A stretch of DNA of 46,636 nucleotides, filler included, from Dirinaria sp. TL-2023a (lineage: Eukaryota): NCBI GenBank assembly GCA_051941275.1. It is 2 parts of 2 records of this genome, joined end to end, with 100 filler letters (N's around TTAATTAATTAA, not from the genome) between each part and the next. Parts side by side here need not be neighbours in the genome. Positions count along the whole stretch, not along the records: positions 1 to 23,311 come from JAVEBF010000207.1; 1 more part is not named here. One strand, written 5' to 3'. Below the pieces are notes generated by a model. It saw only the letters and a list, made by a program, of their open reading frames with translations, was not told the DNA's origin and did no database searches. This document shows, in pieces, positions 16,345 through 16,659 of the stretch. Each line of letters starts with the position of its first letter. Position 1 is the stretch's first letter. The position numbers and the translations under genes were made by a program.

Positions 16345-16659
16345 TCATTCCTCGTAGACTCCATAAGCAGCATCGGCATCGTGGCGCTTCTCATATACCC
16401 CGTAGGCGGCGTCAGCATCATGACGCTTCTCGTCCACTCCGTACGCAGCACCGGCATCGTGGCGTTTCTCGTACACTCCATACGCAGCGTCGGCATCGTG
16501 GCGCTTCTCTGGTGCACTCACATCCAGGTCTCCTAGCAGACAATTAAGACAGTGACATACCTTAGGACCGCACGACATACTCGGAACAGGCGCAAGTGGC
16601 AGACTCAACGTGCCACTGCACAAGATGGCAAGCAATGAGACGATCTTCGAGTAATGCAT
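16345..16659 (-). CDS. KEX2-processed repeat protein (KEP), putative dikaritin RiPP precursor; 88 aa after removing intron 16533-16580
   Basis: Signal-peptide-like MHYSKIVSLLAILCSGTLS-LP, short pro-region RDLDVSAPEKR, then HDADAAYGVYEKR-HDAGAAYGVDEKR-HDADAAYGVYEKR-HDADAAYGVYEE*. It lies head-to-head with a DUF3328 gene. Confidence 0.9.
   Translation of the reverse strand: MHYSKIVSLLAILCSGTLSLPLAPVPSMSCGPKVCHCLNCLLGDLDVSAPEKRHDADAAYGVYEKRHDAGAAYGVDEKRHDADAAYGVYEKRHDADAAYGVYEE
16348..16500 (-). repeat. Four tandem 39-nt coding repeats (last one 36 nt) encoding the KR-delimited peptide units
   Basis: Units at 16462-16500, 16423-16461, 16384-16422 and 16348-16383. Consensus CAY GAT GCY GAY GCY GCN TAY GGR GTN TAY GAG AAR CGY. 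Confidence 0.95.

Follow-up and report, generated by a model that had tools for sequence, protein, structure and literature searches.

A Kex2-repeat precursor gene with YGVY cores beside two UstYa-family oxidase genes in Dirinaria sp. TL-2023a

The precursor gene and its repeat units

The window, a 46,636-nucleotide stretch of DNA (filler included) from Dirinaria sp. TL-2023a (GenBank assembly GCA_051941275.1), contains a small gene on the minus strand at 16345..16659 (coding sequence and stop), which encodes an uncharacterised, predicted secreted-peptide precursor of a known natural-product gene class. Its open reading frame (ORF) begins with ATG and belongs to no Pfam family, and relatives of it exist. 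Together with two neighbouring genes of the UstYa (DUF3328) family, it is rated as a new example within the known dikaritin class, and it very probably encodes the precursor of a RiPP (a peptide made by ribosomal synthesis and altered post-translationally) that is modified by UstYa enzymes and processed by Kex2.

The precursor is 104 amino acids (aa) long if read unspliced and 88 aa long with a candidate 48-nt in-frame intron removed (GTATGT...CTAG, 16533..16580, minus strand). In the splice model, this segment separates a putative signal-peptide exon (proposed exon 1, 16581-16659) from a repeat exon (proposed exon 2, 16345-16532), both on the minus strand, and it is probably an intron. Aligned with the annotated proteins of Bathelium and Varicellaria, the window precursor has an insertion at this position, as does protein P0004, and in the spliced form P-L-A-P lies as far from the first dibasic site as it does in the two annotated proteins.

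The hydrophobic N-terminus MHYSKIVSLLAILCSGTLSLPLA (16590..16659, minus strand, boundary approximate) reads MHYSKIVSLLAILCSGTLSLPLAPVP and is followed by a short linker that ends in Glu-Lys-Arg. Its 9-residue Kyte-Doolittle maximum is 3.12 at residues 6-14, after a Lys, a value that reflects hydropathy alone. The N-termini of the homologues match it and end in A-P-L-A-P, so that hydropathy and homologues together make it a likely signal peptide for the endoplasmic reticulum (ER).

Four 13-residue units close the precursor, with Lys-Arg (KR) ahead of unit 1 (the first Kex2-type site by translation, 16501..16506) and behind units 1-3. On the minus strand, units 1 (16462..16500) and 3 (16384..16422) read HDADAAYGVYE-KR (HDADAAYGVYEKR), unit 2 (16423..16461) reads HDAGAAYGVDE-KR (HDAGAAYGVDEKR), and unit 4 (16345..16383) reads HDADAAYGVYE-E-stop (HDADAAYGVYEE). 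Three units contain two Tyr residues each and unit 2 contains one; the interval 16348-16500 runs through exactly 51 codons, the first for His of unit 1 and the last for the final Glu. Tandem Repeats Finder placed the array at 16351-16509 (period 39, 4.1 copies, 77% matches), which is the sole tandem repeat in the 46.6-kb window. A preliminary description of this DNA had reported three YGVY repeats and a two-residue variant in repeat 2, and both were confirmed by translation and codon comparison.

Over the 11 codons shared by the four units, the variable nucleotide columns number 1, 1, and 9 at codon positions 1, 2, and 3, respectively, and between units 1 and 3 there are 8 synonymous changes and no replacement. 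Because of these two patterns, the repeat peptide is judged to be under purifying selection in the frame of the precursor. The only two replacements in the array are both in unit 2, namely D to G (GAC to GGT, 16450-16452) and Y to D (TAC to GAC, 16432-16434). Synonymous differences number two between units 2 and 1, three between units 2 and 4, and three between units 1 and 4; since unit 2 otherwise differs so little, its two changes are probably those of a young variant. The three YGVY copies arose by tandem duplication and are hence not independent events, and the synonymous divergence among them indicates that they have been maintained.

It is very improbable that the ORF is a decaying or chance repeat with the UstYa genes as unrelated neighbours. 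The two replacements of unit 2 and the degenerate look of the relatives P0006, P0007, and P0008 would suit such a view, which is opposed by the codon-position and synonymous counts given above, by the intact start codon, hydrophobic N-terminus, KR sites, and stop, and by annotated homologues with the same architecture in two lichen fungi.

Two adjacent UstYa genes

The Pfam scan covered 129 stop-to-stop ORFs of at least 90 aa in the window plus 40 smaller ORFs at 12.8-23.2 kb. PF11807 (UstYa/DUF3328) was found on the plus-strand ORFs 18199-18507 (E=3.6e-12), 18488-18769 (E=2.1e-21), and 19955-20248 (E=1.8e-18), which sit a short way upstream of the start of the precursor gene. Splice models, whose GT-AG introns are canonical and 49-62 nt long (49-58 nt in UstYa-A), gave two predicted DUF3328 oxidase genes on the plus strand: UstYa-A at 17738..18845 (6 exons, 278 aa), whose start is 1.08 kb (1.1 kb when rounded) from the precursor start, and UstYa-B at 19385..20251 (4 exons, 231 aa), whose start is 2.7 kb away. 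Each model has one strongly hydrophobic N-terminal segment and two HxxHC motifs; the transmembrane (TM) helix lies at about residues 43-61 in UstYa-A, which has HELHC at 156 and HTEHC at 188, and at about residues 38-56 in UstYa-B, which has HQIHC at 128 and HIKHC at 166. The two proteins are 28% identical to each other.

UstYa-A shares 66% identity over 270 aa with a protein of Botrytis aclada (P0034) and 69% over 221 aa with one of Bathelium mastoideum (P0035), and its splice model is validated because this 66-69% identity includes the last small exon. The best relatives of UstYa-B are 46-50% identical. A divergent intergenic region of 1,078 bp (16660..17737) lies between the starts of the precursor and UstYa-A and is presumed to be their shared promoter.

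DUF3328 enzymes are membrane-anchored homodimers in which two HxxHC motifs bind two coppers, and they require O2 and electrons to abstract H from C(sp3)-H bonds (PMC12435403). Tyrosinase, methyltransferase, peptidase, reductase, transporter, or cluster-regulator domains were not detected by Pfam in the window ORFs scanned. The precursor, UstYa-A, and UstYa-B are accordingly regarded as a three-gene unit, given that no further cluster domains were seen, and the two adjacent UstYa genes with no other tailoring domains in the window make it a minimal dikaritin-type RiPP locus. It belongs to the dikaritin/ust-RiPS class by its KR-spaced repeats, adjacent UstYa genes, double HxxHC motifs, and core Tyr.

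Relatives of the precursor and of UstYa-A

A word-indexed search for relatives of the precursor among 3,146 candidates of 57-182 aa (E <= 0.01) returned 8 proteins, of which the two named ones are both from lichen-forming fungi. The precursor of Bathelium mastoideum (M1821_002495) carries L/EDADAAYGLYEKR units, the last one being EDAGAAYGLYEK, and that of Varicellaria rhodocarpa (MMC14_001895) has QDADAAYG[V/I]YER(R) units. An exhaustive search of representative proteins gave 28 matches at E <= 0.001: 10 of the same family, 5 that share the flank, and 13 unrelated. The last lack the motif, being repeat proteins that are long or unrelated, and were dropped by eye (P0010-12, 14, 15, 17, 19, 21, 23, 26, 27, 29, and 31). 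One of these, P0012, is an unrelated Kex2-repeat protein of 339 aa with about 10 HDGP[R/K]PSGTWKEKR units and Cys-rich ends, matched via the EKRHD junction only. The five flank-sharing proteins (P0016, P0030, P0018, P0024, and P0025) form three groups of Kex2-repeat precursors with other cores, the units being EDADDAYGVYP, [E/D]DADAAYLI[S/P]YK, and xDADTATTY[T/N][V/I]DKR. In the protein atlas, the best score for the precursor query was 0.83, below the useful range.

A search with the UstYa-A exons found 6 proteins among 8 candidates, including M1821_002494 of Bathelium. This UstYa-A orthologue and the Bathelium precursor M1821_002495 have consecutive locus tags and both lie on a 760,028-bp contig; synteny was judged from the NCBI locus-tag numbering, and by these adjoining tags a second genome also pairs the precursor with UstYa-A. 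On sequence comparison, UstYa-A thus appears to be the conserved partner of the precursor. The preliminary description had taken the repeats for cores of a DUF3328-type RiPP precursor, a view that gains support from the two adjacent double-HxxHC UstYa genes and from the adjacency in Bathelium.

The predicted structure of the Bathelium UstYa-A orthologue is poor (predicted local distance difference test, pLDDT, 56.9; predicted template modelling score, pTM, 0.31), with a confident TM helix at 35-67 and neighbouring motif-bearing helices at 152-171 and 182-204. This low-confidence fold is consistent with the architecture of CctR (PMC12435403) and adds little; among solved structures, none related to this protein was found (best E = 0.14).

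Conservation of the core

From 12 close relatives, 33 units could be parsed with a pattern that demanded Gly at position 2 of the core, which excluded one YRVY unit in P0008. Of the 33 units, 30 have Tyr1 and 31 have Tyr4; the second Tyr, whose loss in homologues the preliminary description had named as a sign against its Tyr-Tyr ring, is thus widely retained. Position 3 is occupied by Val (24), Leu (6), Ile (1), and Ala (1). The YGVD form of unit 2 was not kept by orthologous precursors (none of the 33 units), and it probably represents a recent, private variant. The preliminary description had offered two fates for repeat 2, a different congener or an uncyclisable unit; a conserved congener is not borne out, YGVD being private to the window genome. 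The D to G change in the flank of unit 2 recurs once, in the last unit of Bathelium.

Both Tyr residues are lost together in one unit only, CGVC, which P0006 and P0013 share and in which Cys stands at each of the two positions. These two proteins look like two versions of one locus. P0006 also carries an HGVY unit and a DADGA flank. The paired change of Tyr to Cys hints that the two core positions are linked to each other, and in CGVC a disulfide could naturally take the place of the ring that is proposed below.

The acidic flank and its trimming register

Across 59 units (44 unique within their protein) from 17 proteins, D1, A2, D3, and A5 of the flank are nearly invariant. The residue preceding D-A-D-x-A has an entropy of 2.6 bits and the core positions 1.2-2.4 bits; the anchoring pattern demanded D at position 1 and A or T at position 5, so that the zero entropy at both is partly circular. 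The acidic segment was earlier suggested to be a recognition element, and this is supported by the retention of D-A-D-x-A ahead of four different cores: a flank that is kept while the cores differ behaves like a recognition sequence and supports a putative recognition role.

The earlier remark that the DA-DA stretch is out of register also holds. In 40 of the 46 listed units, a basic residue (K/R) and one variable residue precede DAD. The remaining 6 have no basic residue directly ahead of the variable one, and in the two DADDA proteins the dibasic site is separated from Glu by Ala or Gly. The window units run H-D-A-D-A-A after KR, with His-Asp as the first dipeptide. Ste13 has specificity for X-Ala dipeptides. 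As one variable residue precedes DAD, X-Ala dipeptides are never in register with the Kex2 cut, and in-register DA-DA trimming of the Ste13 type, as for the X-Ala spacers of alpha-factor, was rejected, the register being off by one in nearly all units.

It is possible, and rather doubtful at present, that D-A-D-x-A serves a single, unusually conserved clade of UstYa proteins as a portable tag for recognition, behind which at least four Tyr-containing cores (YG[VLI]YE, YGVYP, YLI[SP]YK, and TTY[TN][VI]D) evolved. The family would then be a leader-guided, core-swappable dikaritin subfamily, whose lichen-type member would carry a 17-membered Tyr-O-Cβ-Tyr ring made without tyrosinase.

The conservation of all ten residues of DADAAYGVYE, and not of the core alone, also suits an improbable alternative in which no macrocycle is made, the products are linear, very acidic secreted peptides with a signalling or extracellular role, and the UstYa enzymes only decorate them or have another substrate. 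Most Kex2-processed repeat proteins lack a UstYa partner and are thought to be linear (PMC7329392), and hydroxylation and halogenation are among the reactions of DUF3328 enzymes (PMC12435403). The protein-atlas neighbours of the precursor include an alpha-factor-like cluster, with a score of only 0.79, below the useful range. This alternative has to contend with the adjacency of the precursor and the UstYa-A orthologue in two genomes, with the enrichment of UstYa genes beside Tyr-containing repeat precursors, which peaks at the adjacent position (PMC7329392), and with the paired loss of Tyr to Cys, which suggests that the two positions work together.

Proposed maturation and the cross-link

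The DUF3328 enzyme AprY, on reconstitution, acted as a copper-dependent cyclase (PMC12435403), and it forms ethers from the Tyr phenol oxygen to Cβ (PMC12186524), and an i,i+3 Tyr-O-Cβ link closes a 17-membered ring in the plant peptide arabipeptin A (PMC11253845). We infer the order of processing, the assignment of enzymes, and the identity of the link as follows. The precursor would enter the ER through its signal peptide, and in the Golgi, Kex2 would cut after every Lys-Arg to free X-DADAAYGVYE(KR) units, the basic tail of which would be trimmed. UstYa-A, as a membrane-anchored dicopper oxidase, would recognise the D-A-D-x-A flank and abstract the benzylic Cβ-H at Tyr1, using O2 and reducing equivalents; the phenol oxygen of Tyr4 would capture the resulting radical or cation at Tyr1 Cβ, giving a 17-membered Tyr-O-Cβ-Tyr paracyclophane over Y-G-V-Y. 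UstYa-B would probably add a second oxidation (hydroxylation, desaturation, or a second link), and peptidases would take off the acidic flank in part or in full. Lacking the donor Tyr, unit 2 (YGVD) would stay uncyclised or become a minor linear by-product. Like the larger ring of asperipin-2a, the proposed YGVY ring would not need tyrosinase. In the residue pairing of asperipin-2a, the Tyr-Tyr link spans three residues.

If the Cβ-H of position 3 took part in the reaction, a residue there that alternates among Val, Leu, Ile, and Ala would be unexpected; this variation favours the Tyr-Tyr link. The Tyr4-O to Tyr1-Cβ link is put forward, tentatively, as the leading model, its probability falling somewhat below even, and the account as a whole, link included, as the best explanation, with a chance that only narrowly misses even. 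The contrast drawn earlier between tyrosinase-free, asperipin-like routes and tyrosinase-dependent, ustiloxin-type routes is borne out by PMC7329392 and PMC6514808, and the asperipin-like route fits better here because no tyrosinase domain was found in the window.

Several observations weigh against the Tyr-Tyr link and against the locus as drawn. The covariation in CGVC comes from a single lineage and was noticed post hoc. The flank-sharing cores put their second Tyr at +4 (YLISY and YLIPY) or have none (TTYTVD and TTYNVD), and the only feature common to the cores of all groups (YG[VLI]Y, YGVYP, YLI[SP]Y, and TTY[TN][VI]D) is Tyr-x-(V/I/L), not Tyr-x-x-Tyr. A 13-aa unit with flanks is nearer to the ustiloxin and phomopsin units (13 and 14 aa) than to that of asperipin (PMC7329392). 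The asperipin cluster has one UstYa gene (AprY), the reductase AprR, and the transporter AprT, whereas the window has two UstYa genes and neither accessory (PMC6514808). The tyrosinase domain was absent from the 169 ORFs scanned, all of the window, and a gene elsewhere in the genome is possible. The synteny rests on one other species; a UstYa-A orthologue of Varicellaria did not surface among the only 8 candidates, nor did a UstYa-B orthologue from Bathelium or Varicellaria among 28 matches.

The shared Tyr-x-(V/I/L) feature is what would be expected of a ring of the ustiloxin/phomopsin type, in which Tyr1 forms an aryl-alkyl ether to the Cβ two positions downstream (Y-G-V, 13-membered ring). 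UstYa-A and UstYa-B would then act jointly, as UstYa and UstYb do, Tyr4-Glu would be a C-terminal flank or a tailoring site, and YGVD would still be cyclisable. Such a ring is on balance unlikely, though it is the strongest of the rivals. It agrees with the resemblance of YLIP to the phomopsin core YVIP (PMC7329392), with two distant UstYa paralogues (28% identity) as in the ustiloxin cluster, with a 13-aa unit flanked on both sides as in UstA (PMC7329392), and with the Y-x-V-D units of P0025, which resemble unit 2 of the window. The Tyr of P0025 is, however, displaced two residues from the flank, so that its core may not be positionally homologous. The known Y-x-I rings, those of ustiloxin and phomopsin, both need UstQ/tyrosinase (PMC7329392, PMC6514808), which was not found in the window; Leu (6) or Ala (1) at position 3 of the 33 units would turn a tertiary Cβ-H into a secondary or primary one; and the retention of Tyr4 in nearly all units exceeds the needs of a mere flank.

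Comparison with known systems

Asperipin-2a, from Aspergillus flavus (AprA/AprY), has the core FYYTGY, is bicyclic via ethers from Tyr side chains to β-carbons, and is made by a cluster of four genes, none of them a tyrosinase (PMC6514808); among its links, one joins a Tyr phenol oxygen to Phe Cβ (PMC12186524), and its topology has been likened to a Phe/Leu-Tyr-Tyr di-ether (PMC11253845). The window shares with it a precursor with several cores, processed by Kex2 and encoded next to a UstYa-family gene, and no tyrosinase. FYYTGY aligns with AAYGVY of the window, with Tyr at positions 3 and 6 and Gly plus a β-branched residue between them (PMC6514808). A second asperipin-type ring is unlikely here, for no aromatic residue lies two positions before Tyr1 of the window. 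The units differ in length, at 13 aa with a conserved acidic flank in the window versus 8 aa in asperipin (PMC7329392).

Ustiloxin B and phomopsin (UstA/UstQ/UstYa/UstYb; PhomA/PhomQ/PhomY) resemble the window system in a signal peptide, a likely one in the window precursor, in KR-delimited units of 13-14 aa, and in a core flanked on both sides (PMC7329392, PMC6514808), as well as in at least two UstYa paralogues with double HxxHC motifs and a core that starts with Tyr-x-(β-branched aliphatic). Unlike them, the window has neither tyrosinase nor methyltransferase in the ORFs scanned, and its family has a conserved second Tyr. Position 3 is Val in the Tyr-Gly-Val of the window and Val, Leu, Ile, or Ala in its relatives, as against a fixed Ile in ustiloxin and phomopsin. 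The window cluster comprises three genes versus 15 co-regulated genes for ustiloxin (PMC7329392). The locus is therefore outside both the strict asperipin cluster type and the ustiloxin/phomopsin type, its proposed chemistry being most like asperipin and its precursor layout most like ustiloxin.

The plant split burpitides, such as arabipeptin (ArbA2 with the copper cyclase ArbB2), also have a multi-core precursor with a recognition sequence before each core (PMC12186524, PMC11253845), a copper/O2-dependent enzyme, and a Tyr-O-Cβ link whose i,i+3 spacing gives a 17-membered ring. They differ in enzyme fold, which is unrelated, and in kingdom, and their recognition goes via a charge-flanked Phe rather than the Asp/Ala motif seen here, so that the likeness is one of analogy and not of membership. 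Among lichen fungi, HXXHC UstY homologues are widespread in Lecanoromycetes, some at loci without tyrosinase (Pasinato and Singh, 2025; PMC12048977). That survey reports that its two conserved clans yielded no repeated precursor, whereas the repeated precursor is explicit in the window.

The window motif is absent from the supplements of PMC7329392 (3 files) and PMC12048977 (4 files). A search for the motif and its variants in the full-text literature gave no relevant paper, about 1.7 million PubMed Central articles and the subscription journals being outside its scope, and searches on dikaritins in Botrytis and on lichen Kex2/UstY precursors gave nothing on this precursor family.

Significance

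Chemically characterised dikaritins are few, with five listed in PMC10512285. The present locus supplies an explicit precursor where the 2025 lichen survey (PMC12048977) found no repeated precursors for its UstY loci. Its three-gene cluster is small enough for direct heterologous expression, and the topology of the ring can be probed with natural variants (V/L/I at position 3, YGVD, CGVC, and cores in which the second Tyr is displaced or lacking). Should the product turn out to be just one more Tyr-ether cyclophane, it would extend a known class in a useful but unremarkable way. To our knowledge, the recognition rules of DUF3328 copper cyclases are not yet known. If D-A-D-x-A proves to be an enzyme recognition tag, it would offer a handle for substrate engineering of these cyclases. 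If it is, in addition, a tag behind which the cores are swapped, the family would be the first recognisable dikaritin subfamily of this kind and a fungal counterpart of the plant split burpitides.

Genomic surroundings

The rest of the window is housekeeping in nature, with MSS51, RSE1/CPSF_A, ATP12, a mitochondrial carrier, Kri1, Rua1_C, and TPR-DnaJ, together with a fructosamine-kinase-like gene, a membrane protein with a fungal-rhodopsin domain, and a BAR/PH/VASt protein. As these genes surround the locus, the RiPP genes form a small island in a conserved-looking region. The 40 smaller ORFs yielded only another fructosamine-kinase fragment.

The left edge of the RiPP locus is the fructosamine-kinase-like gene at 13695-14694 on the minus strand, which consists of scattered ORF fragments, is intron-rich or decaying, and matches PF03881 at 13720-14064 (E=7.2e-06) and 14185-14331 (E=0.0054). 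On the other side, about 1.4 kb past UstYa-B (20252-21700) contains unconvincing ORFs without families (e.g., 21334-21996 and 20923-21312 on the minus strand), after which comes the fungal-rhodopsin-domain gene at about 21.7-23.2 kb. Two runs of N at 23312-23355 and 23368-23411 (44 bases each) are filler that joins the two parts of the stretch, and a long Lys/Glu/Arg-rich ORF without a Pfam family (23368-24447, plus strand) stands just past them. A large beta-propeller gene of the RSE1/DDB1/CPSF1 type occupies 6769-10729 on the plus strand, with matches to PF10433, PF23726, and PF03178.

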